DNA from: Coriobacteriia bacterium
GTDB taxonomy: Bacteria; Actinomycetota; Coriobacteriia; Anaerosomatales; PALSA-660
Length of the DNA stretch: 50,987 nt
Assembly: GCA_023252055.1 (NCBI GenBank)
Contig: JAHEXP010000005.1
Location: 1 to 50,987, forward strand
Direction of reading: 5' to 3'
Shown here: piece after piece, positions 6,281 to 47,587 of the stretch
How the letters are laid out: each line of letters starts with the position of its first letter
How positions within the stretch are numbered: position 1 is the first letter of the stretch
The notes under the pieces: generated by a model
What the model saw: only the letters and a program-made list of their open reading frames with translations
What the model was told of the DNA's origin: nothing
Databases searched by the model: none
Translations under genes and position numbers: made by a program

Positions 6281-6284
<4 letters not shown>
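5115..6284 (-). CDS. hutI: Imidazolonepropionase.
   Basis: 389-aa ORF with [14 protein letters not shown] and amidohydrolase metal motifs. Its start overlaps the hutU stop by 4 nt. Confidence 0.92.
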
Positions 6285-7966
<1,682 letters not shown>

Positions 7967-7999
7967 TATCGAAACGCCTCCTTCATGGGAGCGGTGGTC

Positions 8000-9541
8000 C
8001 TAGGCGAGTTCGCCGATGGCAGCGGCCGCGGCGGCCGCGATCTCGCCATCGACGACGAGCCGGTGGACGGCTTCGATCTCCGGCGAAAGGAAGCGATCGG
8101 GGCCGGGGCCCGCGACGTGAAGCCGCAGCAGGTCGCGGACGGCGCCGGTGGCGGCCGAGGGCTCCAGCGGCGTGCGCAGGTCGATCGCACGCGCGGCGGT
8201 CAGGATCTCGATCGCCAGCACGCGCGAGAGACCGTCGACCGACTTCCGGAGCTTGCGGGCCGCGCTCCAGCCCATCGAGACGTGGTCCTCCTGCATCGCC
8301 GACGACGGGATCGAGTCCACGCTGGCGGGTACGGCGAGGCGCTTCATGTCGCTCACGATCGAGGCCTGCGTGTACTGCGCGATCATGTGGCCGGAGTCGA
8401 CACCCGGGTCGCCCGCAAGGAACGCGGGCAGCCCATGAGAGCGAGCGGGATCCAGCATGCGATCGGTCCGGCGCTCGCTGATCGAAGCGAGGTCCGCGGC
8501 GACGATCGCGAGGAAATCGAGGACGTAGGCGACCGGCGCCCCGTGGAAGTTGCCGTTGGATTCCACGCGACCGTCGGCGAGCACGACGGGGTTGTCGACA
8601 GCCGATACGAGCTCCCGGCCCGCGACCGTTGCGGCGTGATCGATCGTGTCGCGGACTGCGCCCGCCACCTGCGGGGCACAGCGCAGCGAGTACGCGTCCT
8701 GCACCTTCACATCGTCGTGCCCCGCGTGGGACGCGACGATGCCGGAACCGGCGAGCAGGCGCGTGATGTTGGATGCGGAGGCCGCCTGTCCCGGATGCGG
8801 GCGCAGCGCCTGCAGGTCGGCGGCGAAGACCCGGTCGGTGCCGAGCAACGCCTCCACGCTCATCGCCGTTCCGATATCGGCCACGGTCACCAGCGCACGC
8901 AGGTCCTCGATCGCCAGCGACAGCATGCCGAGCATCCCGTCGGTGCCGTTGATGAGGGCGAGCCCCTCCTTCTCCTCGAGTTCGACCGGCGCGAGGCCCG
9001 CCGCGGCCAGCGCCTCGCCTGCAGGGCGGCGCACACCGTCGGGCGTGCGCACCTCGCCTTCGCCCATCAGTGCGAGCGCGCAGTGCGACAGCGGCGCAAG
9101 GTCTCCGGAGCACCCCAGCGAGCCCGATTCGGGCACACACGGCGTGATGCCGGCGTTCAGCATGGCGGCGTAGGCGAGCGCCGTGGAGAGACGGACGCCG
9201 GTGCGCCCGCTGCACAGTGTGTTGAGCCGGAGCAGCATGAGGGCGCGAACGACCTCCCGCTCCACCTCTGGGCCGGTGCCCGCAGCGTGCGAGCGGACGA
9301 GAGAGCGCTGGAGCCGGTGGCGCAGCGACGGCTCGATGTAGCGGGTTGCGAGCGAGCCGAAGCCGGTGCTGACGCCGTACACCGGGACACCCGACGTCGC
9401 GAGGCGTTCGATGTGTGCGCGTGCGGCCTCGACCGACGCCGCCGCCCCGTCCGAGATACGCACCTCGGCAGCGTGCCGCGCCACCGCCGCCACATCGTGG
9501 GTGGTCAGCGGCGCGCCGCCGATCGTCACGGGAACCGTCAT
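8000..9541 (-). CDS. hutH: Histidine ammonia-lyase.
   Basis: The ORF 8000..9676 was trimmed to Met46 (MTVPVTIGGAPLT, GGAAGG upstream). It has the MIO region GSLGCSGDLAPLSH and VYGVSTGFG. Confidence 0.9.
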   Translation of the reverse strand: MTVPVTIGGAPLTTHDVAAVARHAAEVRISDGAAASVEAARAHIERLATSGVPVYGVSTGFGSLATRYIEPSLRHRLQRSLVRSHAAGTGPEVEREVVRALMLLRLNTLCSGRTGVRLSTALAYAAMLNAGITPCVPESGSLGCSGDLAPLSHCALALMGEGEVRTPDGVRRPAGEALAAAGLAPVELEEKEGLALINGTDGMLGMLSLAIEDLRALVTVADIGTAMSVEALLGTDRVFAADLQALRPHPGQAASASNITRLLAGSGIVASHAGHDDVKVQDAYSLRCAPQVAGAVRDTIDHAATVAGRELVSAVDNPVVLADGRVESNGNFHGAPVAYVLDFLAIVAADLASISERRTDRMLDPARSHGLPAFLAGDPGVDSGHMIAQYTQASIVSDMKRLAVPASVDSIPSSAMQEDHVSMGWSAARKLRKSVDGLSRVLAIEILTAARAIDLRTPLEPSAATGAVRDLLRLHVAGPGPDRFLSPEIEAVHRLVVDGEIAAAAAAAIGELA

Positions 9542-9705
9542 GGAGCAACCGCCTTCCGGGCCCGGACGCCTCCTGGGCGCACCGCGGGGCCGATCGGTAC
9601 TAGAGTGTCTACGTAGCGCATACCGGTGGACTCGGTGCGCTACAGGCCAGTGTCGCAAGTTCGGCGCGCCCGTCAAGGCGGCGCGCCCGGCGCGAAGGAC
9701 ATGAG

Positions 9706-10631
9706 ATGGACGCCCCCACGCTTCCCGTCGACGGACTCTGGCCCCGGGCCGGGCAGTGGATCGTGCCCGCTGACCCGACCGGCGCCCCCGCCTGCGACCT
9801 TGCGTTGCTCGGCGTCCCCGCGCATCTGACCTCGATCTCCGCTACCGGTGCGGACGCGACGCCGGGCGCCGTGCGCGACGCACTCATGCGCTACTCCACG
9901 TGGGCGGGTAGCCACGATGTGAGCGTCGCCACCCTGAGCGCCCTGGACTTCGGGGACGTGACGGACCCTGACGGCCCGGAGGGCGAGGCGCGGGTGGCCG
10001 CTTCGGTCGCGCGCACAGCGGAGCGGAACTCCTGATCGCACTCGGCGGTGACAACTCCGTCACTAACTCCGTGATGCGCGGCCGCCTCCCCGATCTCGGC
10101 GCCTGCGGACTCATCACCATCGACGCGCACCACGACCTGCGCGACGGTTGCAGCAACGGCTCCCCGGTGCGCCGCCTGATCGAGGCCGGCCTTCCCGGCG
10201 CAAACGTGGTCCAGATCGGCATCGCCGACTTCTCGAACTCGGCCGCCTACGCCGCCCGAGCGCGCGACCTCGGCATTCACGTTGTGCACCGCTCGGAACT
10301 GCGTCGACGCCACCTGGAGGACGTCGCGATCGCGGCTCTCGAAGTGGCCGGTGCGGATGGACGCCCGATCTTCGTCGACATCGACGTCGACGTCTGCGAC
10401 CGCGCGGAGGTACCGGGCTGTCCGGCATCCGCTCCAGGCGGCATCAGCGCCGACGACCTGCGACACCTCGCCTTCCTGCTGGCGCGCGACCCCCGCGTGA
10501 GTGCCATCGACATCACCGAGGTGGACGCCGCCGCCGACGCTCCGGACGGGCGCACCGTCCGGCTCGCAGCGCTCCTCGTGCTGGAGGCCGCCGCAGGCCT
10601 CGCCATCCGCATGGCGGTCCATCAGGCCTGA
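9706..10631 (+). pseudogene. hutG: Formimidoylglutamase / arginase-fold hydrolase split by a single-nucleotide frameshift near 10020-10032.
   Basis: ORF 9706..10035 encodes the N-terminal part (DLALLGVPAHLTSISATGADATPGAVRDAL). The other frame, open from 9972, reads ...ELLIALGGDNSVTNSVMRG and continues into ORF 10071..10631 (IDAHHDLRD, DIDVDVCD). The total span of 926 nt is not a multiple of 3. Confidence 0.75.
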
Positions 10632-21139: not shown

Positions 21140-22468
21140 TCACTTCACCAGTAGCGAAACGCTCCCTGAGTCCACAGTCGCATACGGGCCCCAGCCGAGG
21201 TACTTCGCGGTGAATCGGTACGTCCCCTTGAGGCCCGGCTTGAGCTGCATCGACCATGCACCGGCGACCAGCTTCCGCTCCGCGAGCGCCACGGCGTTCG
21301 TGGACCCGGGGCGCGTGACGTACACGCGAACCGTGCCGTACGAGACGGGCGCGCTGACCGTTCCGTCGATGGTCGCGGTCGCGGACCGGGCGAGCGTCGC
21401 CGCCGAGAGCGTGCAGGTACTGGACACCGGGGACGCGTCGAAGAACCGGACGTCGTCCACGACCGCCGCCGTGCCCGCCGAACCGTTGGCGTCCACGCCG
21501 CCCGCCAGCCGGACGCTTATGGTCGCCGAGGTCGTGTTCGCGGGGGCGGTGGCCGTGATCGACATCGCCGTGAGGGTGGAGGTCCCCACGTGCGAGGTCG
21601 CCCCACTGAGCGATGTGGTCTTCAGCGTGGCGCCGGCGGCGTTCACGAACGTGATGCGCGTCTCGAGCCCCCGCGGATCTGCGCTCGCGTTCGCCCACAA
21701 GGACAACCGGTAGGGGACTCCCGACTTCACAGCCTGGGTCTGGCGCATCTCGACGACGTCGCTGGACTTGCCTGAGTCGTTCAGGAGCCGGAGCGCGGAG
21801 TTGCCGGTCTTCGTCACGTCGACGGCACGGCTACAGACGATCGAGCCCCACTGCGTGTTGGGGAACTCCCACCACACCGGCACCGAGCGCGCCCACACGT
21901 CGAACGTGGGGTTCGCTGCCAGGTTCCACTGAGGTGCACCCGTTGAGATCTTGTCGTAGCGGTATGCGCGGTACCCCTGCGAGAGGACGGATGCGACGTC
22001 CTTGATGTTGCACTGGGTGCCGTTGCCGCCCTGCGTGCTCGACGTCTGTTCGTAGACCACGTACTTCGTGTGCGTCGCGTCCAGCCATCCGACGAAGATC
22101 GTCGCGTGCCCCCAGCTGCCGCTCTTCTTGGGTCTGATCATCGCGTCGCCTGGCTTCAGGTTCGCTACCTTGATCTTCGTGTCCACCCGCCACAGCGAGT
22201 CCGTCGCCCACGACGTGCCGGTCTTCCACGACATGGACGTGAAACCGGAGCAGTCGGCGCGGTACCCGCGGAAGTAGCCCGACCTCAACTGGCTGTAGGG
22301 CACCTTGATGTCGATCCACGTCTGCGCGCGCGCCAGCACGCTCGCGCGCGTGATCGCGAAGGCATCGGTGGTGACGAGGGCGAGCAGGATGGTCGCTAGC
22401 ACGAGGACGGCGCCCGACCGCAGAGGGAAGCGACGGTGACGTTCGCGGCGCGTGGTCTCGTTCATCAT
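21140..22468 (-). CDS. Secreted NlpC/P60-family cell-wall hydrolase with a CBM4/9-like jelly-roll domain and the shared C-terminal module.
   Basis: The ORF was trimmed to MMNETTRR (residue 250, GGAGG 7 nt upstream). It has a signal/TM segment, the catalytic region YRADCSGFTSMSW...GHATIFVGW, and the C-terminus TRPGS...KGTYRFTAKYLG. Confidence 0.8.
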   Translation of the reverse strand: MMNETTRRERHRRFPLRSGAVLVLATILLALVTTDAFAITRASVLARAQTWIDIKVPYSQLRSGYFRGYRADCSGFTSMSWKTGTSWATDSLWRVDTKIKVANLKPGDAMIRPKKSGSWGHATIFVGWLDATHTKYVVYEQTSSTQGGNGTQCNIKDVASVLSQGYRAYRYDKISTGAPQWNLAANPTFDVWARSVPVWWEFPNTQWGSIVCSRAVDVTKTGNSALRLLNDSGKSSDVVEMRQTQAVKSGVPYRLSLWANASADPRGLETRITFVNAAGATLKTTSLSGATSHVGTSTLTAMSITATAPANTTSATISVRLAGGVDANGSAGTAAVVDDVRFFDASPVSSTCTLSAATLARSATATIDGTVSAPVSYGTVRVYVTRPGSTNAVALAERKLVAGAWSMQLKPGLKGTYRFTAKYLGWGPYATVDSGSVSLLVK

Positions 22469-22590: not shown

Positions 22591-23235
22591 TCAGTCTACG
22601 CCCTCGGTGAGCCTCGCCGCCAACCGCTTGCACCTGTCGAGCTCCTCCCGGAGTATCGGCGAGTCCACCACCTCGGTCTCCTCGAACTCCAAGGAGAAGT
22701 CGCTGCAGAACCGCTTCGCCTTCTCGCGGTACGGTTCCAACTCGTCGGCGGGCATCCCCGTGTTGAAGAAGAGTCCCCGTTTGTAGTGGGTGAAGAGGCG
22801 CTTCGCCATCTCCATCGGGTCGCGGCCGTACTTGGCGGCGCGGTCCAGCTTCAGTTCCTTGATCACCATGTGCGCGCCCACCTCGGCCCACCCGGGGCTC
22901 ATGAACCACGTGCCGACCTCGTGCTCGATCTCTTTCGAGTAGCGCTCCGGGGTGAGCATGAACATGATGCAGTCGTCGTAGGGCGGCAACACCGTCGGGA
23001 CCTTGACGAGCTTGTCGATGTCCTTGAGCGACTGGCAGTACCCGTATCCGAGGAATACGGCGTCCACCTTGCCTTCCAGCGCGTCGATCTGCTCGACGAG
23101 CGCGTCGCGCATCTTCTCGGGGTAGATGTGGAGCGCCGCCTCCAGATACACGACCTCGGTGATGTCCGGGTCGCCCTCGATGAGACGGGCGATCTCGTGC
23201 TTGATCATGTCGCACGCGATGACAGCTATGCGCAT
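22591..23235 (-). CDS. DUF1638 domain protein, a family usually linked to corrinoid methyltransferase genes.
   Basis: Trimmed to MRIAVIACDMIKHEI... (Met35). The pattern matches DUF1638 (VFLGYGYC, WFMSPGWA). Confidence 0.75.
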   Translation of the reverse strand: MRIAVIACDMIKHEIARLIEGDPDITEVVYLEAALHIYPEKMRDALVEQIDALEGKVDAVFLGYGYCQSLKDIDKLVKVPTVLPPYDDCIMFMLTPERYSKEIEHEVGTWFMSPGWAEVGAHMVIKELKLDRAAKYGRDPMEMAKRLFTHYKRGLFFNTGMPADELEPYREKAKRFCSDFSLEFEETEVVDSPILREELDRCKRLAARLTEGVD

Positions 23236-23257
23236 CGTGTAGGGCCTCTCGTGTAGG

Positions 23258-24883
23258 TCAGGCGCTGGCGCTCGGGAACCGCATCGCCGAGACGAAGGTG
23301 TTCTGGAAGTCGGGGTGGCCGGCGAGATCGATCGCACTCACGTGGCGGGCGATCGATTCCGCGCGCCGCCGCGCGGCCGTGTCGAGCAAGGCCATCAACG
23401 CGCCGGTCATGGCGGTGTTGCCCGCGAATGAGACGCGGTCGAGCCACATCGGGGGGATCATCCCCATGCGCACGAGCGCCGCGGCCTTCACGTGGTAGCC
23501 GAATCCCCCGGCGATGACGAGCTCCGCGACGCTCTCGGGCGCCACACCCGCCGAGTCCAGCAGCATCTCGATCCCGGATGCGATCGCGGCGTTCGCCAGC
23601 TGGACCTGCCGGACGTCCTTCTGCGTGAGCAGTACGCCCGGAGCGATCTCGAACACACGCGTGCCCTGGGTGTCGGAGATCCGGGCGGCAAGCGGATGCG
23701 GCCCTTCGGCGCGCAGGCGGCCGGTGGGGTCGAGGACGCCTGCGTCGAGAAGGACGGCGACGAGGTCGAGCAACCCGCTCCCGCACAGGCCCCGGGCCTC
23801 CCCGCCCCCGATCGTCTCGTAGTGCAGCTCCCCGGCCTCGTCCATCGAGACGCGCTCGATGGCGCCCGCTTCCGCCCGCATGCCGTAGGCGATGCTGGCG
23901 CCTTCGAGCGCGGGGCCGGCTGCGGTGGAAGCAGCGACAAGCCCTTCGGGCGTGCGCAGGACCATCTCCCCGTTGGTGCCGAGGTCTATGAGCAGCGCGG
24001 ATGTCTCCTGTTCGGCCAACCCCGTCGCGAGCAGCCCCGCGGTGATATCGGCGCCGATGAACGCGGAGATGCCGGGGAGCACGTAGACCGCCGCCTCCGG
24101 CATGCCGGTGAGACCCACTTCTGCGGCCGGACGCTCCACAGGATCGACGAACGCCGGCTCGTAGGGGGCGACGCCGAGCGGAGCCGGGTCGATCCCCAGG
24201 AGTAGGTGGATCATCGTCGTGTTTCCCGCGAGCGCGACCTCGCGCAACGCGCGCATCGGCTGTCCGACGGTGCGCAGAACGTCAGCGATGAGACGCTCGA
24301 TCTCGGACGCGATCGGCTCGCGCATGGACTCGGTGCCGTGGGCCGCCACGTGCGTTATACGAGACATCACGTCATGGCCGAACGGATGCTGCGGGTTGAG
24401 CGCTGACGCCGAGCCGAGGCGCTTGCCGGTCTCGAGGTCGAAGATCGCGGCCACCACCGTCGTCGTGCCGATGTCCACGACCGCCCCGAGCAGCGGCCTG
24501 CCCCCGGTGATCCCGCGTGCCGCCGGCGACTCCAGCGCGATCTCGCGCTGTTCGCCGGTCTCAAGGATACGGAGGCCCGCCGAGGCGCCGTGCGCGTTCG
24601 CAAGCGGCCGCACCGTGACGTCGCCGGTGACGCGGGCCCGGCACGACAACCGAACGTCGCCAGCCAAGCGCTCCTCGCCGAGCATGGTCCGCTCGTCGCC
24701 CGTCGGCGGCTCCAGAGCACCCACGGCCACGACCGCGCAGCGGCCGCACGTGCCGAGGCCGCCGCACGGGTGCTCGAGGGCGACCCCCGCGCCCGCGGCG
24801 ATCTCCTTGAGGGTCGCGCCGGGCTCGGCGGAGACATGTACTCCGTCGGGCTCGAACGTGACGGTGATCGGCTGGTTCGGCAT
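23258..24883 (-). CDS. RACo-type reductive activator of corrinoid proteins ([2Fe-2S] ferredoxin domain plus ASKHA/DUF4445 ATPase).
   Basis: 541 aa with N-terminal CGGLGTCGRC...C (CX5CX2C) and GAVVDIGTTTV / IDLGTNGE ASKHA phosphate motifs. Confidence 0.85.
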   Translation of the reverse strand: MPNQPITVTFEPDGVHVSAEPGATLKEIAAGAGVALEHPCGGLGTCGRCAVVAVGALEPPTGDERTMLGEERLAGDVRLSCRARVTGDVTVRPLANAHGASAGLRILETGEQREIALESPAARGITGGRPLLGAVVDIGTTTVVAAIFDLETGKRLGSASALNPQHPFGHDVMSRITHVAAHGTESMREPIASEIERLIADVLRTVGQPMRALREVALAGNTTMIHLLLGIDPAPLGVAPYEPAFVDPVERPAAEVGLTGMPEAAVYVLPGISAFIGADITAGLLATGLAEQETSALLIDLGTNGEMVLRTPEGLVAASTAAGPALEGASIAYGMRAEAGAIERVSMDEAGELHYETIGGGEARGLCGSGLLDLVAVLLDAGVLDPTGRLRAEGPHPLAARISDTQGTRVFEIAPGVLLTQKDVRQVQLANAAIASGIEMLLDSAGVAPESVAELVIAGGFGYHVKAAALVRMGMIPPMWLDRVSFAGNTAMTGALMALLDTAARRRAESIARHVSAIDLAGHPDFQNTFVSAMRFPSASA

Positions 24884-24923
24884 CCGGTATCTCCGTGTGT
24901 CGGGTGGGTTGTCGCAGGCCGGG

Positions 24924-26897
24924 CTAGAGCAGCGGTGGGCCCGAGGCTGTGGCCACGACGGTCAGCTCAACGAACACGTCGTCGTCGCGCCGCTCCTGCT
25001 CCGCCACGACCTCGTCGAAGGAGAGCGAGACCGAGACGACCGTGGCGCCGGCGGCCGCTGCGGCAGCGCTTGCCGCCTCGCTCGCCAGCTCCTCGGCGCG
25101 CTTTCGCGCCGTCGCGTAGTCATCGTAGCGCTCACGCGTCGCCGGGGTGATGACCGCGAACTGCTCGCCCGCCTCCATCCGGACCCGCGCTTCGGCGCGC
25201 TCGATCACGCGCCCGGCGAGCGCCCCGAATGCGTTGGCGACCTCCGCATGCTCCGGGACCACGAGGTCGGCGGCGAGCAGCTCGCCCGCCGACGGGAACC
25301 AGGCCGCGGCCGGAGCGCCGACGGCGACCAAGGGGACGCCGAGTGCGAGTCGGGAGCGCAGCGCGCCCTCACGGCCCTCCGCGAGCAGGTGGTCGAGAAG
25401 CGCCGCCTCCGCAGCCGACGGTTCCACCCCCCGGCGGTCGCCCGCCAAGGCACGCGCGGCCACCTCGAGGGCGAGGCGGGACCCAACCTCACGTCGAACT
25501 GACGCACCGAGCGCCTCGGCGTCGGTCCGGGCCGACGCTGCCATCAAAGCGAGTCCGGCGACCGACGCTCGTCTTGAACCCAGGTCCAATTCGCCGGCCG
25601 CGACCAACACATCGGTCGGCGTGGGAGCGATCTCGGCCACGTGGCCCGATCGGACGAGGGCATCGACGTCCACGAACGGCCCCGCAACGCCGGCGGCGCC
25701 GTCCACGTGCAACGCGCGCCCGTCGATCGCATCGAACAGGGCCGCCAGAGACGGCGAAAGATCACCTTCCGGCCTCCGCACCAGGGTCAGGTAGACCGGG
25801 GGCTCGGCCGCTTCGCCAGACGCAGCCGCGTCGACGGCCGACTCGAGTTCCGCCGCGAGATCGGGGAAGCGCTGGGCGGCGGTGCAGAGCGGTACCGCTC
25901 GGTCCGGGCCGAGCGAGACGAGCCCGCCGCGTTGGACCCGGATACGGCTGTCACCACCGAGGCCGACGGTGCGAACGTCGAGCGCTTGCACGCGCGTGCG
26001 CCATCCTCCCACGAGCGCTCCGTCGGAGCTGACCGCGGGCATGCCGCCGGAAACGAGTGCGATGTCGGTGGTCGTCCCACCCATGTCGGCCACGAGCGCC
26101 GAAGTGAGACCGGAGAGGCGACACGCCCCGACGACGCTCGCCGCCGGGCCTGACAGCACCGTGTCGACCGGACGCAGCCGCGCCATCCTCTCCGCCGTCA
26201 ACGACCCGTCGCCCTTCACGACCATGAGGGGCGCGGCGATGTGGAAGGCGTCGAGCGTGCTACGGACGGCGTCGAGAAGGTCCCGCACAAGGGGAAGCAG
26301 ACGGGCGTTGAGCGCGGCGGTCGTTGCCCGCTCCACCATGCCGATGCGTTGCGACAGCTCGTGGCCGCAGACCACCGGGGCGCCGCAGGCCGCCGCGACC
26401 AGATCGCGGAGCGCTGTCTCGTGTTCCGAGTTGGCGACACTGAAGTACGTGGAGACGGCAACCGCGTCGACGGTCCGTCCCATTCTCGCGACCGCCGCGG
26501 CCGCGGCCTCCAGATCGAGCGGAGTCCGAACGGAACCGTCGGGGCCGTGCGCTCCCGCGATCACCGCCACGTCCATCGCCGGCAGTCCCGCCGGAAGTGC
26601 GAACGTCTCCGGGTCGGGCACTGCCACGATGAGCCCCACCCGCGCCCCCTTCCCTTCCACGACCGCATTCGTCGCGAGCGTGGTCGAGAGCGAGACCAGC
26701 TCGACGCCTCGGAACAGGCCGGCGTCGATGGCAGCGAGCGCGTCGCGGATCCCGACGGCGAGGTCTTCCCGCGTCGTCGGCCGTTTCGCCTTCGCGAGTA
26801 TGGCTCCGCAAGTCAGATCCACCGCAACGGCGTCCGTGAAGGTCCCGCCGGTATCGATCCCGATGCCGATGCGGGTTTCGTTGATGCTTCGGGGCAC
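24924..26897 (-). CDS. Stand-alone hydantoinase/oxoprolinase-family (HyuA-like, ASKHA fold) protein.
   Basis: 657 aa with a GTG start 4 nt after the upstream stop. It has N-terminal IGIDTGGTFTDAV and central ADMGGTTTDIAL. No HyuB partner is present in the window. Confidence 0.8.
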   Translation of the reverse strand: MPRSINETRIGIGIDTGGTFTDAVAVDLTCGAILAKAKRPTTREDLAVGIRDALAAIDAGLFRGVELVSLSTTLATNAVVEGKGARVGLIVAVPDPETFALPAGLPAMDVAVIAGAHGPDGSVRTPLDLEAAAAAVARMGRTVDAVAVSTYFSVANSEHETALRDLVAAACGAPVVCGHELSQRIGMVERATTAALNARLLPLVRDLLDAVRSTLDAFHIAAPLMVVKGDGSLTAERMARLRPVDTVLSGPAASVVGACRLSGLTSALVADMGGTTTDIALVSGGMPAVSSDGALVGGWRTRVQALDVRTVGLGGDSRIRVQRGGLVSLGPDRAVPLCTAAQRFPDLAAELESAVDAAASGEAAEPPVYLTLVRRPEGDLSPSLAALFDAIDGRALHVDGAAGVAGPFVDVDALVRSGHVAEIAPTPTDVLVAAGELDLGSRRASVAGLALMAASARTDAEALGASVRREVGSRLALEVAARALAGDRRGVEPSAAEAALLDHLLAEGREGALRSRLALGVPLVAVGAPAAAWFPSAGELLAADLVVPEHAEVANAFGALAGRVIERAEARVRMEAGEQFAVITPATRERYDDYATARKRAEELASEAASAAAAAAGATVVSVSLSFDEVVAEQERRDDDVFVELTVVATASGPPLL

Positions 26898-26901
26898 AGC
26901 G

Positions 26902-27972
26902 CTAGGCCACGTTATGGCCGTCGTAGCGCCCGTACTTCCGGGCCGCCATGATCAGCGCATCGACATTCTCGAACGGCGTGTTGATCGGAACCTCGCAGCC
27001 CGAGCCCAGGATGAAGCCGTGCGGGGAATCGAGCGTCTTGACGCAGATCCCCTTGGCCTCCTCGTCGATCTGCTCAGCGGTGTTCTTGAGCATGTTCGCG
27101 GGAACGACGTTGCCCAGCAGGACGACTCTGTCTCCGACCGCCTCCTTGGCCTCGGCCAGGTCGACCGCGTCCAAGCTCCAGAGGTCGAAGTCCGTGGCCA
27201 GCATCGCCTTCCAGTTGGGCTTCGTCTTGCCGCAGATGTGCAATGCGGCGAGCGGCGCGCCCTTGGCGTGCAGGTGATCGGAGACGCGCTTGAGGTACGG
27301 CGCGACGAATTCGGTGAAGTGGGCAGGGCTCACCAGCGACGCGGAGCCGATCGGCTCGACGATGATCGGCAGGCCCCCGCGCTCCATGATCGCGTCGATG
27401 AAGCGAAGGTTCGCCTCGGTCGTCAACTCGAGCAGCTCGTGGACCTTGGCCTTGTCCTTGTAGAGCTCCCGTGTCATGAGGTCCAGCGGGCGCAGCGCCG
27501 CCGCAGTGGTGAAGGGGCCGCCCAGAACCACCGAGACGACGACCTCGCTCCCCACCTCCTTGACGCAGTGCTCGAGCGCCGTGAGGTAGACGGGCAGCCG
27601 GCCGTCCTTCTCGGGATCGGGCATGTTGATCCGCGAGAAGTCATAGCCGTCCTGGAGGAGAAACTCGTCGATCTGCGGTGCGTCCTCATCGAAGAACTTC
27701 ATCTTCGTGCCCATCGCCTCAGCGAGCGTGGAGGTCGTGGAGAAGATGGTGACGAGGTCGTTGCCGTAGCGGCGCCACGTGGCCACGTGGGCGCGGCCCA
27801 TGACGTCGCCGTCGCGGTTATAGACGCCGACGGGAACGCCCAGGACCCGAGCAGCATGGTTCAGGATCAGCGGGAAGCACGCGACGCGCTGCGGGTGCTC
27901 GCCCTTGAGGTAGGAAACGACGCGCTCCAGCGAGGACTGGGTGTCCGCAGGAACGTTGACGAGAGTCTCCAT
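26902..27972 (-). CDS. URO-D superfamily MtaA/CmuA-type zinc methyltransferase (copy B).
   Basis: 356 aa with GGAAAGG upstream. It carries LHICGKT (H-x-C) and GSGCEVP. Confidence 0.85.
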   Translation of the reverse strand: METLVNVPADTQSSLERVVSYLKGEHPQRVACFPLILNHAARVLGVPVGVYNRDGDVMGRAHVATWRRYGNDLVTIFSTTSTLAEAMGTKMKFFDEDAPQIDEFLLQDGYDFSRINMPDPEKDGRLPVYLTALEHCVKEVGSEVVVSVVLGGPFTTAAALRPLDLMTRELYKDKAKVHELLELTTEANLRFIDAIMERGGLPIIVEPIGSASLVSPAHFTEFVAPYLKRVSDHLHAKGAPLAALHICGKTKPNWKAMLATDFDLWSLDAVDLAEAKEAVGDRVVLLGNVVPANMLKNTAEQIDEEAKGICVKTLDSPHGFILGSGCEVPINTPFENVDALIMAARKYGRYDGHNVA

Positions 27973-28001
27973 CAGGTGTGACCTTTCCGTATGGGAGCGG
28001 G

Positions 28002-28661
28002 CTAGGCAGCGGCCGTCGCGAAGAGTTCGGTGGCCACGCGCACAGCGCTGGAGGCGTTGTCGGCATAGCCGTCTGCGCCGATCTTTTCCGCGAACGAACG
28101 CGAGATCGGGCCGCCGCCGATCATGACCTTGAACCTGTCGCGGATGCCCTCCTCATCTAGCATCTGGATGATCGCCGCCATGCCGTCCATCGTCGTGGTC
28201 ATGAGCGTCGAGAGGCAGATGAGCTGGGAGTTGGTCTCCTTCGCCTTCTCGATGAAGTCCGCGAGCGGGACGTCGCGCCCGAGGTCATGGACCTCGAAAC
28301 CGGCGACGTCGAGCATGATCTTCACGAGGTTCTTGCCGATGTCGTGGGTGTCACCCTTCACGACCCCGATGACGCATCCGATCTTCACACCCTGGTCCGC
28401 CACCTTGAGATGCGGCCTGAGGACGTCCAGCGCGGCATACATCGCGTCCGAACAGATGAGCAGCTCGGGGACGAAGTACTCCTCCTCGTCGTAGAGGCGC
28501 CCGGCCTCGTTCATCCCCACGACGAGGCCCTTGGTGATCGCTTCGTACGCGTCCATGCCGGCGTCCACCGCCTCGTGAGCGGCGGCTACTGCAAGGTCCT
28601 CGTCGAGATCGAGGACACCTCTGGCAAGGTCGGCGAGTATCTCTTCTGTGGAGCGCGGCAT
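28002..28661 (-). CDS. Corrinoid (B12-binding) methyl-carrier protein, MtaC/MtbC/MttC-like.
   Basis: The start was placed at the second ATG (AGAAAGG 9 nt upstream). The DxHxxG motif is GDTHDIGKN, followed by a GG.. Rossmann-like B12 domain. Confidence 0.9.
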   Translation of the reverse strand: MPRSTEEILADLARGVLDLDEDLAVAAAHEAVDAGMDAYEAITKGLVVGMNEAGRLYDEEEYFVPELLICSDAMYAALDVLRPHLKVADQGVKIGCVIGVVKGDTHDIGKNLVKIMLDVAGFEVHDLGRDVPLADFIEKAKETNSQLICLSTLMTTTMDGMAAIIQMLDEEGIRDRFKVMIGGGPISRSFAEKIGADGYADNASSAVRVATELFATAAA

Positions 28662-28716
28662 GTCCGGTGCCTTTCTCATTGGGGTCAGCCGGCCGCATCG
28701 CGTGCGGTCGGGACTT

Positions 28717-29787
28717 CTACCGTCCTACAGCGACCGAGCGGAGCTCTCGCTCCGCGCCTTCCCAGTCTTGGGCGGTCGCCACCACGTCGGCGACCGCGCG
28801 GATGTTGGCCAGCGGGGTGCGCGGACCGATGCCGCACGCGGGGGCGATGATGTCGACGCCCTCGAGCACGCGGTTGACCGCGACGCGGCGCAACGTTTCC
28901 GCCTTCCCATACTCCAGAAGGTACGTGCTCACGTTGCCCATCGACGCGTGGTCGGGCGCAAGTGCACGCAACGTTCGGAACGACACGTTGCTGTCGATGC
29001 TGATGACCGGCGCGCTCACTTCACCCAGCACGCCGCCGAGCGCCTTCACGTCCCCGCAGATGTGGACGATCGAGTGCACGTCGCGCGCGGCGAAGTGGTC
29101 GACGATCCGGTTGATGTAGGGCAGTGCGAATTCGCGGAACGCCTTCGCTCCGATGATCTCGCCGGTCCCACTCGGGTCCGCGATGCAGACCGTGTCGGCG
29201 CCGGCCCCGACGAGCGCATCACCGAACGCGATCGCGGCGTCTGCCGAGAGCTCGAGGAGCGCGTGGGCGGCGGACGGGTCGCGCCGCATGGCGCGGTAGA
29301 AGATGAGCGGATCGACGAGCGAGGTCGCGAGCGATATCGGACCTGTGACGCACGCGATCATCGGCAGATCGGGGCGCTCGGCCACGAGCAGCCGGGTCGC
29401 CTCGGCCGCGGTGGCGGCCCTGTCACCGCGGACGTCGAACGCGGCGAGGTCGTCGATGGCGGACAACCCCGCGATCGCATACTCGGTCACGCGCGGCTCG
29501 GTCTCGGCGGAGCCCAGGTCGACGGTCGCGCCCATGCCCTCTGCTTCGATCGTCATACAGAAGGGCGCGCCGAGGTTCTCCACGCCCGCGAGGTCGACCA
29601 TGCCCAGTACGAGGCGGGCCATGCTCTCGGGATCGCTGTGTGCGGCCGGCCATGAGTCTCCAACGGAGCTCATGACCTCGGTCACCGCCATGTTCATCAT
29701 GCCGCCGGGGCAGATGAACGGAGGCCGATCGACCGCATCGCGGCCGAGAACATCGCGCAGCCGCTGCTTGGGAGTCCGGATACCCAA
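28717..29787 (-). CDS. URO-D superfamily MtaA/CmuA-type zinc methyltransferase (copy A).
   Basis: The ORF 28717..29883 was trimmed to an in-frame TTG at 29787, because a promoter-like element lies inside the longer ORF. It has an N-terminal TPKQRLRDVLG..VDRPP typical of MtaA, VHICGD and IIAPACGIG. The start is uncertain. Confidence 0.75.
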   Translation of the reverse strand: MGIRTPKQRLRDVLGRDAVDRPPFICPGGMMNMAVTEVMSSVGDSWPAAHSDPESMARLVLGMVDLAGVENLGAPFCMTIEAEGMGATVDLGSAETEPRVTEYAIAGLSAIDDLAAFDVRGDRAATAAEATRLLVAERPDLPMIACVTGPISLATSLVDPLIFYRAMRRDPSAAHALLELSADAAIAFGDALVGAGADTVCIADPSGTGEIIGAKAFREFALPYINRIVDHFAARDVHSIVHICGDVKALGGVLGEVSAPVISIDSNVSFRTLRALAPDHASMGNVSTYLLEYGKAETLRRVAVNRVLEGVDIIAPACGIGPRTPLANIRAVADVVATAQDWEGAERELRSVAVGR

Positions 29788-29838
29788 CGTGATCCGTTCG
29801 GTCGCTTCAGCACGTCTTATGCAAACCAGAGTGCAAGC

Positions 29839-29867
29839 ATTATGCCATCGGGTCGCACTATTGGGAA
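29839..29867 (-). promoter_or_regulatory. Sigma70-like promoter of the corrinoid methyltransferase operon.
   Basis: The reverse strand reads TTCCCA (29867-29862), a 17-nt spacer, then TGGCATAAT (29847-29839, extended -10). Confidence 0.4.
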
Positions 29868-29919
29868 CCAAGGAGCCGGGCATGGTTCACGGGCGCCGGC
29901 CCCGTCCCACGCGGCGGTC

Positions 29920-30552
29920 TCAGACCGACGCTTCGAACCAAGCGAGCGCCAGGTCGGCGGCCCGCGCCAGAGTGCCCGGCTCCTCGAACAGGTGCGTGGC
30001 CCCCGGGACGATCTCGAGCCGCTTCTCGCGGGCGGGGATCAGCGCCAGGGCCTCCTCGTTGAGTCCGATCACCTGGTAGTCGAGTCCGCCGACGATGAGC
30101 AGGATGGGCGCCTCAAGGTCGCGGAGCGCCTCCCCTGCAAGGTCGGGCCTGCCGCCGCGCGAGACGACCGCCGCGACCGTTGCCGGCATCCGCGTCGCCG
30201 CCACGATCGCAGCGGCGGCCCCGGTGCTCGCTCCGAAGTAGCCGACCGTCAGGTGTGCCAGTTCCGGTCGCGAGAGCACTTCGCGGGTCGCCGCCTCGAG
30301 CCGTTGGGCCAGAAGGCCGATGTCGAACCGGTTCGAGTAGGTCTCGTCCTCGCCCGGTGTCAGCAGGTCGAAGAGCAGAGTGCCGAACGAACCGGAGCGG
30401 CGCAGCACCGAGGCGACGTAGCGGTTTCGGCCGCTCAGGCGACTGGAGCCGGATCCGTGCGCGAACACCACGACGCCGCGGGCGCCATGGGGAACTTCCA
30501 GGTCGCCGATCAGCGTGACCGGGCCCGCCGGGATGCGGATCTCGCTGTCCAT
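29920..30552 (-). CDS. Dienelactone hydrolase-family alpha/beta hydrolase.
   Basis: The ORF 29920..31464 was trimmed to MDSEIRIPAG (GGAGGA 5 nt upstream). It is 210 aa with VVFAHGSGSS and [12 protein letters not shown] (nucleophile elbow). Confidence 0.8.
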   Translation of the reverse strand: MDSEIRIPAGPVTLIGDLEVPHGARGVVVFAHGSGSSRLSGRNRYVASVLRRSGSFGTLLFDLLTPGEDETYSNRFDIGLLAQRLEAATREVLSRPELAHLTVGYFGASTGAAAAIVAATRMPATVAAVVSRGGRPDLAGEALRDLEAPILLIVGGLDYQVIGLNEEALALIPAREKRLEIVPGATHLFEEPGTLARAADLALAWFEASV

Positions 30553-41573: not shown

Positions 41574-43985
41574 CTACGCCCCTATGCGGCGGAACATCTC
41601 CTCGAACTGCGAGCGGGAGTCCTGCCGCACCGCGGGCAAGCGATCAAGGATCGCTGCCGCATGGGCGTCGCGTTCGCCGATGAGACGCTCCACGACAGCA
41701 CGCAGCGCCTCGGGATCATGCTCGGAGTAGTCGAAGACGAACTCCTCGAGTCCGAACTGCTTCATCACCTCGAGGTACTTGTGGCTCCAACCGACCACCG
41801 CCACGGGCACGCCGATCGACAGCGCCCCGACCATCGCGTGGAACCGCGACACCGCCACGACCGAGCACGCTTCGATGACCGTGCGCAGGGACGCAGCGTT
41901 CATATCGCCGGTCACGTGCATCACGTCCGCGCCTGCCTCGCCCAACCGCTCATGGATCTGGGCGATCACCGGAAGGTCGTTGTTGCGCAGTTTCGTGGAG
42001 CGGGCGCGCGTCGCGTTCGGGAACAAGAGCACGCTGTGCCCATCTTCGACGAGCCCTGCCGCGAGCCGCGCCATGAATCCGACGTAGTCCCACCCCTCCG
42101 AGACCGCCTTGCTCGCGAGCACGGCGCTCGGACACAGGCCGACCACGGCACGCCCGGCGGCCCGCATCTCCAGTGAGCGGGCCGCGAGACGGTCCGCCTC
42201 CTCCCCGCCCTCTCTCGAGAGCGAGTCCCGCGCCTCGAACAGGAACGCGACGTCCGCCCCGGCGAGCATGCGATCGGCGGGGAACGCGATCGTCTCGAGA
42301 TGCTCGACGGTCGTCTCCCCGCGCGGCACCACGAGTGCGCACTTCGGCAGCAGCCACTTCGCGAGGAACCGGTTGAGCGGGTGCTTGAACGGCCCTACCG
42401 CCTGCGCGAGTTTGAACACGGGCGTCCGCAGCAACATCGCGGGCAGGATCGTGAGCACGTTGAACGGCAGGTACTTGTCGCGGCCGTCGATGAACGAGAC
42501 GCCGGCGAGGTCGATGAGCGCGCGGCTCTCGGCCAGCTCCCGCACGGAGCGCGGGAAGATGCGCGGGACCTTGCCCAGGCGCGCGAACGGCGCCGCGAGC
42601 AGCGAGAGCGGGAACAGCACGCCGACGAGGTACGCCGGCGTCGAGGAACGAACCGTCACCGCCTTGTCGCGGATCAGCTCCGAGTCCATTTCCGGCTGGT
42701 ACGAGAAGACGGTGAAACGCGCATCCGGGAACTTGTCGCGGATCCTCCCGATGGAGGTCTCGAGCATCGCCTCAGCGCCGCGGTTGCCGTATACGGTCGC
42801 GGCGATGAGCGAGAAGCGCGGCGAACCCTCTGGCGCGCCGGGGACGAGCGGGCCGGTGGGCAGAGACTCGAGGCCCTTGAGGTAGTAGAGGCGCGCCTTC
42901 AGGAGGCGGCGGTTCGCAGCGAGCACACGGGCGCTTCCCTCGGTGTCCTGACTCGCAAGGTGGTTCCGCAGCGTCATGCGCGCGGCAGCACGTTCGTGCG
43001 TCCTAACGCCGGTCCGCACCTTGTCCGGGACGCGCATGCCGAGCGGTGCGCCGGCCTGCGAGCGCGCGGTGACGTTGAAGTGGAACGGCGCGGTGCGGCG
43101 CTGACCGTCGAGGACCTCTCGCAGCGGCACCGGGCTCGCCACGAGCACGCCGGAGGCAACCGCGGCACTCAGCGCTTCCTCGCCGCGCTCCGTCTTCACC
43201 AGCAGCGCGGTGTGTTTCACCGGATCGTTCTTGTACTTCTGGGACCACAGGTCGCCGGCACTGATGTCCGCCGAGTATCCGAAGTGGTCGCCGCAGAACA
43301 TGCACTTCTTCGGAGTCCCGAAATAGAGGTTGTGGTAGAGCAGGTAGTGGTTCGACGGCTTGTCGACGACCGCGCCGTTGTCGTAGGTGGCCGTGAGCCG
43401 CCCACGCCAATGCCCGCTTCGGAACCGGAACGTCTCGAGCTTCCCGCCGCCCACGCTGGCCGCGAGCCGGTCGGTCATCGCGTCGACGAACTGGGTCTCG
43501 CTCGTGTGCCCGCAGAACAGCGCGATCGCGAGCTCGACCTTCTCGCTCATCGACGGATCGTGCCGCACGAGGGCGATCTCGCACGGGAGTGCGACGACCG
43601 CCAGCTTGCCCTCGAACTCGCGGATGAGCGGGGCAGCCTCGCGACCGAACTCGCCCAGCACGTACGTGCTGCCGCGTGCCGCGAGCACCTCGTCCCGGGT
43701 GCGCGCGATGCGGTAGCGGGCGCGCACCCGACCGTCCTCCACCGACGTCGCGCAGACGAGCGCGCCGTCGACCCGGCCGGACTCGAGCGCCGCGATGAGC
43801 AGACCTGACACGGCGCCACCCGAAGCGGCGCCCGACCGCACCGCCTCATCGGCTGCGTGGGCGATGTGGCTCTCGCGCACCTCTCCCACGAGCGAAGCGA
43901 TCTCCGCGCCGGTCCAGCGGTGCGCGGTGATCCGGTCGACGATCTTACCCAGCTTCACCGGGGGTCGCCTCCCCATCGGAACCAT
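41574..43985 (-). CDS. Fusion protein: an FrhB/FdhB-like (coenzyme F420 hydrogenase beta-type) domain plus a polysaccharide pyruvyl transferase domain.
   Basis: The N-terminal half has SGAASGGAVSGLLIAAL..GRVDGALV...ALPCEI...LFCGH. The C-terminal half has YGNRGAEAMLETSI and a pyruvyl-transferase-like pattern. The start is uncertain (44045, 43985, 43976 or 43958) and overlaps the upstream gene end. Confidence 0.7.
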   Translation of the reverse strand: MVPMGRRPPVKLGKIVDRITAHRWTGAEIASLVGEVRESHIAHAADEAVRSGAASGGAVSGLLIAALESGRVDGALVCATSVEDGRVRARYRIARTRDEVLAARGSTYVLGEFGREAAPLIREFEGKLAVVALPCEIALVRHDPSMSEKVELAIALFCGHTSETQFVDAMTDRLAASVGGGKLETFRFRSGHWRGRLTATYDNGAVVDKPSNHYLLYHNLYFGTPKKCMFCGDHFGYSADISAGDLWSQKYKNDPVKHTALLVKTERGEEALSAAVASGVLVASPVPLREVLDGQRRTAPFHFNVTARSQAGAPLGMRVPDKVRTGVRTHERAAARMTLRNHLASQDTEGSARVLAANRRLLKARLYYLKGLESLPTGPLVPGAPEGSPRFSLIAATVYGNRGAEAMLETSIGRIRDKFPDARFTVFSYQPEMDSELIRDKAVTVRSSTPAYLVGVLFPLSLLAAPFARLGKVPRIFPRSVRELAESRALIDLAGVSFIDGRDKYLPFNVLTILPAMLLRTPVFKLAQAVGPFKHPLNRFLAKWLLPKCALVVPRGETTVEHLETIAFPADRMLAGADVAFLFEARDSLSREGGEEADRLAARSLEMRAAGRAVVGLCPSAVLASKAVSEGWDYVGFMARLAAGLVEDGHSVLLFPNATRARSTKLRNNDLPVIAQIHERLGEAGADVMHVTGDMNAASLRTVIEACSVVAVSRFHAMVGALSIGVPVAVVGWSHKYLEVMKQFGLEEFVFDYSEHDPEALRAVVERLIGERDAHAAAILDRLPAVRQDSRSQFEEMFRRIGA

Positions 43986-45993: not shown

Positions 45994-46018
45994 GAACGCC
46001 TACCCCTCGTCGGTATCG

Positions 46019-47296: not shown

Positions 47297-47587
47297 GCGG
47301 GGCACCTTTCAATGCGAGATCGACACCGGACGGACGCGCGCGATCCCGGTGTGTGATCGACTCGGGAAACTACTGGATTCTACAACATCGGGCCGGTGCC
47401 GCCCCGCGTTCGCGGCGTACCCGAAGCCCTCCGCGCGAAGCGAGCACAGGGCCGCTGAGCAGGAACGGCCGCCCATCGCCGGGCGCCCCCTGCCCCCGGT
47501 GGCGATCCCCATTGTCGCCCTCGGCGTCGCCCCGCCCCCTGTTCGTCACCGGGCCGTCACCCGTTGACGACACCGGCGCGCCACAGG

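Follow-up and report, generated by a model that had tools for sequence, protein, structure and literature searches.

What does a corrinoid methyltransferase operon do when no recognisable substrate-specific or folate-side partner is encoded beside it? This question is raised by six genes on the minus strand of contig JAHEXP010000005.1 of a Coriobacteriia bacterium (assembly GCA_023252055.1), of which a stretch of 50,987 nucleotides, here called the window, was analysed. The first-pass annotation of this stretch had regarded the arrangement as unusual and poorly studied. However, our analysis indicates that the operon is a member of a family that has already been catalogued, namely the type I ‘mlp gene clusters’ (MGCs) of Kountz and Balskus, and not a new kind of system. 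We consider it moderately likely that the operon encodes a self-contained corrinoid methyl relay that acts on methylated chalcogens, rather than on methoxy-aromatics, amines or methanol.

The 51-kb window has a GC content of 65-73% throughout and the raw lists of its open reading frames (ORFs) were full of spurious frames. Genes were selected by filtering the ORFs by the GC content of their third codon positions (GC3). What emerged was a single unambiguous series of six minus-strand genes, spanning positions 29883 to 22591, which encode, in the order of transcription, a first zinc methyltransferase that we call MT-A (28717..29787, 356 aa), a corrinoid (B12-binding) protein that would serve as the methyl carrier (28002..28679, 225 aa), a second and more divergent zinc methyltransferase that we call MT-B (26902..27972, 356 aa), a HyuA-like ATPase (24924..26897), a reductive activase of the RACo/RACE type (23258..24883) and a DUF1638 protein (22591..23235, 214 aa, with its ATG at 23235). 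The gaps between these genes measure 37, 29, 4, 40 and 22 nt, respectively. All genes of the operon that had been proposed at the outset were therefore found, with gaps in the proposed range of about 4-40 nt, and Pfam upheld each of the six family assignments. On the plus strand no gene within the cluster has GC3 support, except for one short and doubtful ORF at 25641-26153.

The sigma70-like promoter from which the operon had been suggested to be read is predicted at 29839..29867 on the minus strand (TTCCCA, a 17-nt spacer and a TG-extended CATAAT). It is the sole sigma70-like site between 22200 and 30100, where 0.5 such sites would be expected by chance as judged from shuffled sequences, and it falls within the long MT-A ORF as called mechanically from the ATG at 29883. 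Because the promoter-like site lies inside this extension, the start at 29883 was rejected, and the most likely start of MT-A is the TTG at 29787, giving a protein of 356 aa. This start agrees with the lengths of orthologues and with a stop codon at that position in an orthologous Acidobacteriota locus (L002). Rfam models, run over the complete window at their gathering thresholds, gave no riboswitch or other RNA family, and no conserved element was apparent when the regions upstream of MT-A from the window and four close relatives were aligned, using approximate coordinates for the relatives. At least 26 further loci likewise contain these six families as a cluster, a co-occurrence that is far beyond chance.

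Both methyltransferases belong to the URO-D family, with E-values of 2e-71 for MT-A and 2e-70 for MT-B. MT-A scores 341 bits with the NCBIfam subfamily model PRK06252 ‘methylcobalamin:coenzyme M methyltransferase’, above its cutoff of 244, but stays under the equivalog cutoffs for MtaA (NF040654, 215 versus 400) and MtbA (NF041608, 192 versus 600). MT-B passes no NCBIfam model and lies below every MtaA, MtbA and CmuA cutoff, with scores of 122 versus 400 for NF040654 and 99.5 versus 600 for NF041608. The best match of both enzymes among solved structures is MtaA of Methanosarcina mazei (PDB 4ay7; E-values of 1.4e-42 for MT-A and 1.2e-22 for MT-B). Each is 27-28% identical to MtaA, and the two are 21% identical to each other. 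The zinc ligands of MtaA (the His and Cys of LHICGN and the Cys of PGCG) align with VHICGD and PACG in MT-A and with LHICGK and SGCE in MT-B, where they correspond to H245, C247 and C326. These His-Cys-Cys columns are invariant in 17-20 orthologues of each enzyme. Judging from these alignments, both enzymes retain the MtaA-type His-Cys-Cys zinc triad, in line with their earlier description as enzymes of the zinc H-x-C...C type.

The state of this triad also bears on the substrate. The first-pass annotation had associated it with the activation of thiols or phenolates, which is broader than warranted. An unbroken His-Cys-Cys marks the S/Se-methyltransferases in the UroD superfamily, whereas in the O-demethylases one Cys residue, or both, have been lost (PMC10418091). 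Indeed, the O-demethylase type of MT1 (OdmB/VdmB/CdmB) is not matched by either enzyme, as the full Cys2His site is retained in both and the only similarity to this type is a marginal one between MT-B and the chloromethane MT1 CdmB (PDB 9rui; E-value 3.7e-5, or 5.6e-10 with a profile), which is confined to the C-terminal 150 residues.

MT-B is the most strongly conserved of the two methyltransferases. Its orthologues are 59-84% identical across phyla, and in a 50%-identity library of 1.84 billion representatives the MT-B subgroup makes up two entries, the next match being 41% identical. Between phyla, identities amount to 62-73% for MT-B, 64-75% for the corrinoid protein, 49-60% for MT-A, 43-50% for the HyuA-like protein and 34-45% for RACo. 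Because the partners in the cluster, and RACo in particular, are conserved far less, the high identity of MT-B reflects constraint on that enzyme and not a recent transfer of the whole cluster. Such conservation is what one would expect if the substrate of the enzyme is small and invariant.

The corrinoid protein contains both Pfam B12 domains (B12-binding_2 and B12-binding) with the DxHxxG motif present as GDTHDIG, and it scores 214.8 bits with TIGR02370, 0.5 bit short of the cutoff of 215.3. It is 73% identical to its counterpart in Desulfuromonas sp. TF and 56% identical to that in Methanococcus maripaludis, which is encoded beside P0527. RACo matches the RACo protein of Carboxydothermus hydrogenoformans (PDB 3zyy) over residues 128-537 with an E-value of 9e-90, and it combines an N-terminal [2Fe-2S] ferredoxin domain with a CX5CX2C...C motif, a middle domain and a C-terminal ASKHA ATPase domain (Fer2, Raco_middle and RACo_C_ter). 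Its score with the NCBIfam model AcsV is 360 versus 800, and it is therefore not a CoFeSP-specific activase.

The operon was compared with the MGCs. These are defined by four criteria (PMC10418091, a bioRxiv preprint of 2023), which include a single transcriptional direction, gaps of no more than 2 kb and no tetrahydrofolate (H4folate) methylase within 20 kb. A type I MGC has one Mlp2 and one Mlp3, the reference being CLJU_RS09360-09380 of Clostridium ljungdahlii, and Mlp2 is the sister to a clade of methanogen coenzyme M (CoM) methyltransferases that also includes Mlp1 and Mlp3 (PMC10418091). In the window, two URO-D proteins, a B12-binding protein and a three-domain RACo are encoded together, with all six genes on the minus strand. 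The window extends 22.6 kb to one side of the cluster and 21.1 kb to the other, and a Pfam scan of every GC3-supported ORF, four of which had no Pfam match, detected no pterin-binding, MtrH, MttB, MtaB or MtmB protein. The earlier claim that a partner of these types is missing thus holds for the 51-kb window, and neither flank contains a Pterin_bind or MtrH match that would indicate an H4folate methylase. The His-Cys-Cys residues expected of Mlps were found by alignment in all MT-A and MT-B orthologues examined.

Orthologous clusters are present in several of the genomes listed in PMC10418091. Desulfuromonas sp. TF (GCA_000472285.1) encodes the corrinoid protein (CoP), MT-B, CobW, MT-A, RACo, the HyuA-like protein and DUF1638 in this order, with MT-B and MT-A that are 65% and 57% identical to those of the window. 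Its assembly is in the type I list, is Sel-positive and has an Mlp3 outside the ‘non-selenium’ clade (PMC10418091). Further orthologous clusters were found in the listed assemblies of Geomesophilobacter sediminis Red875, Jettenia ecosi J2 (L055), Brocadia species and Sporomusa silvacetica. The locus of Thermanaeromonas toyohensis, a listed type I MGC with exactly two Mlps, has a corrinoid protein gene and two URO-D genes without an activase, which is the same as noted for it in the table of PMC10418091. The MGCs of T. toyohensis and S. silvacetica were represented in a neighbour-joining (NJ) tree by their two URO-D genes, and MT-B groups with the first of these and MT-A with the second, M. mazei MtaA being placed on the MT-A side. 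This topology mirrors the published Mlp tree and assigns MT-B to the Mlp2 type and MT-A to the Mlp3 type. The nearest studied relatives of the two enzymes are 35-45% identical, so neither of them clusters tightly with a characterised pair of MT1 and MT2 enzymes.

When 65 genome loci (referred to by L numbers) were searched by tblastn with the six proteins of the window, nearly all of them turned out to contain the same set. Homologues of MT-B with 59-84% identity occur in metagenome-assembled genomes (MAGs) of Actinomycetota/Coriobacteriia, in Gallionellaceae/Nitrosomonadales, Nitrospinota, Acidobacteriota, Geobacterales, many Desulfobacterota and Syntrophorhabdales, while homologues with 43-52% identity occur in anammox Planctomycetota and some Firmicutes. 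The high-GC Gram-positive host that had been suspected earlier is plausible, as the closest named homologues are those from the Actinomycetota/Coriobacteriia MAGs and the base composition of the window agrees with it. The commoner gene order is CoP-MTB-(extra gene)-MTA-RACo-Hyu-DUF1638. The order of the window, MTA-CoP-MTB-Hyu-RACo-DUF1638, is shared by its closest relatives (L004, L005, L014, L070 and L071), and the anammox and Firmicutes versions end at CoP-MTB-MTA-RACo. On the basis of these comparisons, the window belongs to a tight, extended subgroup of at least 30 loci from several phyla. One locus with a 37% identical match to MT-B, that of Candidatus Clostridium eludens (L064), was rejected as a cluster as it contains a lone URO-D gene. 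In anammox loci of the Brocadiaceae (L045, L047, L055, L056, L058, L060 and L066), a cation-diffusion-facilitator (CDF) gene of the zinc-transporter type is located 1-4 kb upstream of the minimal CoP-MTB-MTA-RACo cluster.

The extended cluster was also observed in MAGs labelled Gallionella, Nitrosomonadales, Nitrospinota/Nitrospinales and Acidobacteriota (L006-L012, L013-L017, L024 and L002). These lineages are usually microaerophilic or aerobic. Type I clusters have been stated to occur solely in obligate anaerobes (PMC10418091). Either this statement is too narrow, or the Gallionella, Nitrospinota and Acidobacteriota MAGs in question are unusual.

What sets the subgroup apart is its accessory genes. 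A HyuA-like gene is present in 30 of the 31 sufficiently long loci with an MT-B of at least 59% identity, and in these loci DUF1638 is nearly always found beside it. The exception is L025, a deltaproteobacterial MAG with the order CoP-MTB-CobW-MTA, in which no RACo, HyuA-like or DUF1638 gene is nearby although 8 kb of downstream sequence are available. The HyuA-like protein, of the hydantoinase/oxoprolinase family, matches Hydant_A_N and only the N-terminal half of the Hydantoinase_A model, with a weak match to MutL/GlmL. It carries two ASKHA phosphate motifs, IDTGGTFTD and ADMGGTTTD, and its C-terminal 323 aa have no Pfam match.

The DUF1638 protein (PF07796, E-value 1.6e-29) has a start that fits the orthologue consensus MRIGVIACDM, and its orthologues are 53-90% identical. 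Four Cys residues (C8, C67, C89 and C177) and two His residues (H36 and H150) are invariant across 28 orthologues, which suggests a metal or iron-sulfur site. An AlphaFold (AF2) model of the protein is confident (pLDDT 91.5). A Foldseek comparison of this model with the PDB returned chance-level matches only (TM of 0.35 or less) and hence no fold relative, and a sequence search against the PDB gave no match. In Phaeobacter inhibens, a DUF1638 gene and a gene for a ferredoxin-DUF4445 (RamA-like) protein are genetically required for a split corrinoid methionine synthase, and the authors of that study made no functional proposal for DUF1638 (PMC5764234). DUF1638 and a RamA-like protein are also up-regulated together with MtgC in Ruegeria pomeroyi (PMC12478193). 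For hydantoinase-family proteins in corrinoid activation, our literature searches returned just the mention in a figure legend of such a gene drawn in the glycine-betaine methyltransferase clusters of several anaerobes.

A gene for a CobW/COG0523 GTPase is positioned between MT-B and MT-A in about 19 loci (e.g. L001 11052-11987, L021 11045-11989 and L073 10062-10997). These CobW-bearing versions belong to Desulfobacterota, Geobacterales and Syntrophorhabdales. CobW is absent from the version of the window, and in Gallionellaceae the gene at this place encodes a small membrane protein. The text of PMC10418091 makes no mention of hydantoinase, DUF1638 or CobW. We infer that the HyuA-like ATPase and DUF1638 may maintain the corrinoid protein and that CobW, where present, may serve the two zinc sites.

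How might these proteins work together? In the relay that we propose, MT-B would bind a small methyl-selenide or methyl-sulfide at its His-Cys-Cys zinc site, candidate donors being methylselenol or dimethylselenide or, alternatively, methanethiol or dimethylsulfide. It would pass the methyl group to the Co(I) of the corrinoid protein, thereby freeing selenide or sulfide. MT-A, which is closer to MtaA/MtbA, would then take the methyl group off CH3-Co(III) and deliver it to a thiol, with sulfide, homocysteine or a low-molecular-weight thiol as candidate acceptors. RACo, using ATP and its [2Fe-2S] cluster, would return Co(II) to Co(I), and the HyuA-like ATPase and DUF1638 could contribute to the loading or repair of the cofactor or to the supply of electrons. 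The physiological role would most likely be the recovery of usable selenium from methylated selenium, with a role in methyl-sulfur metabolism or methionine salvage as the main alternative.

This proposal is in line with the published hypothesis that MGCs demethylate a methyl-selenide or -sulfide onto the corrinoid protein and hand the methyl group to a thiol (PMC10418091). The first-pass annotation had concluded that donor and acceptor cannot be deduced, which was too pessimistic with respect to the donor. Three lines of evidence, all of them from related systems outside the present subgroup, point to methylated selenium or sulfur as candidate donors. The Mlp2 protein of C. ljungdahlii (ClMlp2) uses methylcobalamin to methylate selenide, the Km being about 80 uM, and has weak activity with sulfide (PMC10418091). 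Genetic data are available for sdmABC of Methanococcus voltae, where deletion of sdmC, an Mlp2 gene, abolishes the use of dimethylselenide (Niess & Klein 2004, as cited in PMC10418091 and PMC11097638). Lastly, M. maripaludis strongly induces equivalent loci for a corrinoid protein and a ‘uroporphyrinogen decarboxylase’ under selenium starvation (PMC11097638). The M. maripaludis protein P0527, the gene of which directly follows that of the corrinoid protein, is 35% identical to MT-B over its full length (E-value 2e-77), and Methanococcales URO-D proteins are among the nearest representatives outside the MT-B subgroup. This pair may correspond to the starvation-induced MMJJ_16960 pair, the description of which it fits.

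Selenium also appears in the genomic surroundings. Selenocysteine (Sec) machinery is present in 87% of MGC genomes, with selenium genes in or near many of the clusters (PMC10418091). Among our loci, SelD, SelA and SelB are encoded immediately upstream of the Acidobacteriota cluster (L002) with a NifS-like gene downstream of it, a SelD-like gene is located 3 kb upstream in Gallionella (L012) and SelB 4 kb upstream in Geobacter (L067). Three Nitrospinales loci have a small gene for a CYCXC ‘(seleno)protein’ (NF041379, Pfam PCYCGC) between MT-A and RACo (L016 4876-5325, L017 12379-12813 and L020 5595-6038). An ArsM-family SAM methyltransferase gene (PRK11873, 257 bits versus a cutoff of 263) is located beside the cluster or not far from it in L007 (17497-18330), L009 (11619-12452), L010 (17320-18150) and L011 (5765-6484), and an ArsM-family gene upstream of the cluster in L002 (2605-3216) matches the model of an ArsM/AhpD selenoprotein and is cut at a probable UGA. 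In the six families themselves, no selenocysteine (in-frame TGA at a Cys position) was found across the 65 loci, all stops being located at gene ends or in mis-extended alignments.

Several observations weigh against this reading. Neither a selenium gene nor one for sulfur salvage or tRNA-Sec is present in the window (indeed, it contains no tRNAs at all), and its close relatives L070 and L071 are likewise without selenium or sulfur-salvage genes nearby. In a Pfam census of 142 flanking ORFs from 25 extended clusters, no family was present at more than four clusters. In view of this census and of an adjacency that is seen in three lineages, the link with selenium is therefore modest. Biochemistry for the entire family comes from outside the present subgroup and amounts to one slow reaction, which was run in reverse with free methylcobalamin (0.78 per min) and has been published as a preprint (PMC10418091). 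Relatives with 35-45% identity are the source from which MT-B was extrapolated to be the donor side and MT-A the acceptor side, and the clade assignment is based on a small NJ tree and on orthology to listed clusters, without the reference sequences of Kountz and Balskus. Lastly, the interval between MT-B, which ends at 26902, and RACo, which starts at 24883, measures 2,018 bp and thus exceeds the 2-kb rule for MGCs by 18 bp. It is filled by the HyuA-like gene, whereas in the commoner order (L001 and L073) RACo directly follows MT-A and the distances stay within 2 kb. Taken together, selenium is the best supported reading, for this subgroup mainly through homology to the Methanococcus and Clostridium systems and through the three lineage-specific adjacencies.

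A relay restricted to sulfur would run on the same chemistry, taking the methyl group of a methylthio donor (methanethiol, dimethylsulfide, methylmercaptopropionate or a thioether derived from MTA) to homocysteine or sulfide, for anaerobic methionine salvage or methyl-sulfur recycling. The His-Cys-Cys site serves thiols in MtaA, MtbA and MtsA, no selenium gene is present in the window, L070 or L071, and a rhodanese gene is located near the L070 cluster. Moreover, this function has been proposed for about 10% of the type I MGCs and would agree with the weak activity of ClMlp2 on sulfide (PMC10418091). However, what marks MGCs of the sulfur type is an Mlp3 from a separate, ‘non-selenium’ clade, along with nearby genes for methionine or of the MarHDK-like kind (PMC10418091), while the orthologous extended cluster of Desulfuromonas sp. 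TF is from a Sel-positive genome with an Mlp3 outside that clade, and no MarHDK, Met or Mtn genes were found among the 142 flanking ORFs. Wherever a functional context exists, selenium is involved. We therefore regard an exclusive role in sulfur metabolism as a less probable, though serious, explanation. A different view of the subgroup would start from its extra genes. With an MT-B of at least 59% identity, the HyuA-like protein, DUF1638 and usually CobW, it might form a functionally distinct machine, either with a new corrinoid/zinc maintenance module, made up of the two ATP- or GTP-driven helpers and the four-cysteine DUF1638, that serves a Co(I) relay in the microaerobic Gallionella, Nitrospinota and Acidobacteriota, or with a dedicated donor such as a methylated metalloid. 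This we consider unlikely. It is even harder to believe that the cluster serves the corrinoid-dependent methylation or demethylation of a metal or metalloid (arsenic, mercury or tellurium) for detoxification. The CobW-type metallochaperone GTPase inside about 19 clusters, the ArsM-like gene that directly follows DUF1638 in Gallionellaceae and is near the cluster in L011 and L002, the CDF efflux gene upstream of the anammox clusters and the P-type ATPases that flank L070 and L071 might all be seen in this light. Nevertheless, CobW could equally well supply zinc, as a chaperone, to the two zinc enzymes, ArsM-like neighbours are restricted to three lineages and some of them belong to selenoprotein families, and no ars or mer genes were found in the window or in the flank census. 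In addition, we know of no precedent for a dedicated corrinoid-protein system of this type that acts on arsenic or mercury.

Two further explanations for the operon were considered. It could be a classical catabolic demethylase for methoxy-aromatics, a halomethane or methanol, with the folate-side methyltransferase encoded elsewhere in the genome. The logic of MT1, corrinoid protein, MT2 and activase is shared with such systems, OdmB, VdmB and CdmB are MT1 enzymes of the URO-D family, the weak match of MT-B to CdmB would fit, and the data cover the window and not the rest of the genome. What makes this explanation highly improbable is the full His-Cys-Cys site in both enzymes, the restriction of the similarity with CdmB to the C-terminus and the grouping of both enzymes with MtaA and the Mlp proteins. 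Furthermore, many hosts are autotrophs (Gallionella, Nitrospinota and anammox bacteria) in which one would not expect a catabolic demethylase, and the census of the 142 flanking ORFs revealed no conserved transporter or regulator beside the cluster. Alternatively, the operon could encode a corrinoid methionine synthase of another kind, in which one URO-D enzyme methylates homocysteine and the other loads the corrinoid from an unspecified C1 donor. The URO-D enzymes and the MetE-type methionine synthases are distantly related zinc barrels, which speaks for this view, as do the very high conservation of MT-B and the presence of the cluster in autotrophs. Likewise, DUF1638 and a RamA-like activase help the split MetH of P. 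inhibens (PMC5764234). However, the cluster is distributed patchily within genera, unlike an essential enzyme, only some Geobacterales species having been matched, and it has neither a folate- or pterin-binding module nor adjacent met genes. This explanation thus seems to have very little likelihood. The relay for methylated chalcogens is therefore the reading that we prefer.

If the preferred relay for methylated chalcogens is indeed what these clusters encode, bacteria could use them to reclaim selenium, or sulfur and methyl groups, out of volatile methylated compounds. This would be a largely unmeasured step in how selenium and sulfur are cycled in groundwater, sediments and guts. The cluster family, the defining absence of a folate-side enzyme and the hypothesis of sulfur or selenium as substrates are already in the literature, and nothing of this is overturned by our findings. 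What we add is an Actinomycetota-type example of the type I MGC family, a conserved subgroup that spans Proteobacteria, Nitrospinota, Acidobacteriota, Desulfobacterota and Actinomycetota, the occurrence of the cluster in lineages not usually counted as strict anaerobes, three conserved accessory genes (for the HyuA-like ATPase, DUF1638 and CobW) that had not been discussed in the description of the family, and the assignment of MT-B and MT-A to donor-side and acceptor-side clades. As DUF1638 is required for a corrinoid methionine synthase without a known mechanism, the compact six-gene operon offers a convenient system for defining its role.

Within the window, the six genes form an island of C1 chemistry amid unrelated functions. 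The neighbours include hut genes, a MarR regulator with two ABC exporters, surface proteins and a zinc alcohol dehydrogenase, as well as an LCM-family methyltransferase, an NHL/thioredoxin protein, a protein with a metallo-beta-lactamase fold, glycosyltransferases and a GGDEF protein. The gene upstream of MT-A is of the dienelactone hydrolase family (29920-30549, minus strand). It ends some 130 nt before the start of MT-A and is probably a separate transcription unit, because the promoter-like site sits between it and MT-A. On the other side, and also on the minus strand, a gene for a secreted protein (21140-22450) begins about 170 nt past DUF1638, with no terminator-like site between the two. 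Its product has a signal peptide, a Cys/His region that resembles NlpC/P60 when inspected by eye and a weak CBM_4_9 match. The histidine-utilisation genes lie within 5115-10631 and encode a HutH-like aromatic amino acid lyase (8000-9676), a urocanase (6281-7966), an amidohydrolase (5115-6284) and a fragment of an arginase-family protein (10071-10631). The region 41574-47305 is likely an exopolysaccharide locus, encoding a fusion of an FrhB-like protein with a polysaccharide pyruvyl transferase (823 aa), an LPG_synthase_TM protein, a GT2 glycosyltransferase and a UDP-glucose/GDP-mannose dehydrogenase.

Finally, the cluster can be placed among the known corrinoid systems. The O-demethylases and CdmBCA (OdmABCD, Vdm and Dhaf4610-12; PMC13222342) share with it the logic of MT1, corrinoid protein, MT2 and ATP-dependent activase as well as an MT1 of the URO-D family. 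However, they end in a pterin-binding MT2 that forms methyl-H4folate, of which there is none in the window, and the MT1 of the O-demethylases is without the full Cys2His zinc site (PMC10418091) that MT-A and MT-B both keep. The split MetH/MtgC system of the Rhodobacterales (PMC5764234, PMC12478193) has in common with the cluster a pair of helpers, the ferredoxin-DUF4445 activase and DUF1638, by which a stand-alone corrinoid protein is kept active, but employs pterin-binding, homocysteine S-methyltransferase and MttB-type enzymes rather than URO-D enzymes, and no HyuA-like gene has been reported for it. Closer in their active sites are MtaA, MtbA and MtsA of Methanosarcina (PDB 4ay7), which share the URO-D TIM barrel and a zinc site, His-x-Cys...Cys, that aligns residue for residue. 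Their chemistry is the transfer of a methyl group from methyl-Co(III) to a thiolate. The identity of 27-28% and the wide margins by which the MtaA and MtbA equivalog cutoffs are missed separate the window enzymes from them and, since the hosts of the clusters are not methanogens, CoM cannot be assumed to be the acceptor.

The SdmABC system and the M. maripaludis loci resemble the cluster further in combining a corrinoid protein with MtaA-like methyltransferases and no partner of the MttB or MtaB type. P0527 and MT-B both have the HICGKT and GCE motifs, and the corrinoid proteins show the 56% identity mentioned above. The Sdm system differs in being archaeal, with CoM as the presumed acceptor and a regulation by selenium that has been shown there, and the M. 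maripaludis locus (L072), unlike the window, has no RACo, HyuA-like or DUF1638 gene adjoining. The closest correspondence is with the type I MGCs, with which the cluster shares two His-Cys-Cys MtaA-like proteins of different clades, one corrinoid protein, a Ram/RACE activase, the location of all genes on one strand and the lack of an H4folate methylase nearby. Compared with the type I MGCs, the window has no Mlp1 gene and the order MTA-CoP-MTB-Hyu-RACo-DUF1638, and its host belongs to the Actinomycetota, whereas 73% of the type I MGC genera are Firmicutes (PMC10418091). To the Firmicutes MGC members examined, the window proteins are 38-45% identical, and the subgroup as a whole is distinguished from the other type I MGCs by its conserved extras, the HyuA-like ATPase, DUF1638 and, often, CobW.

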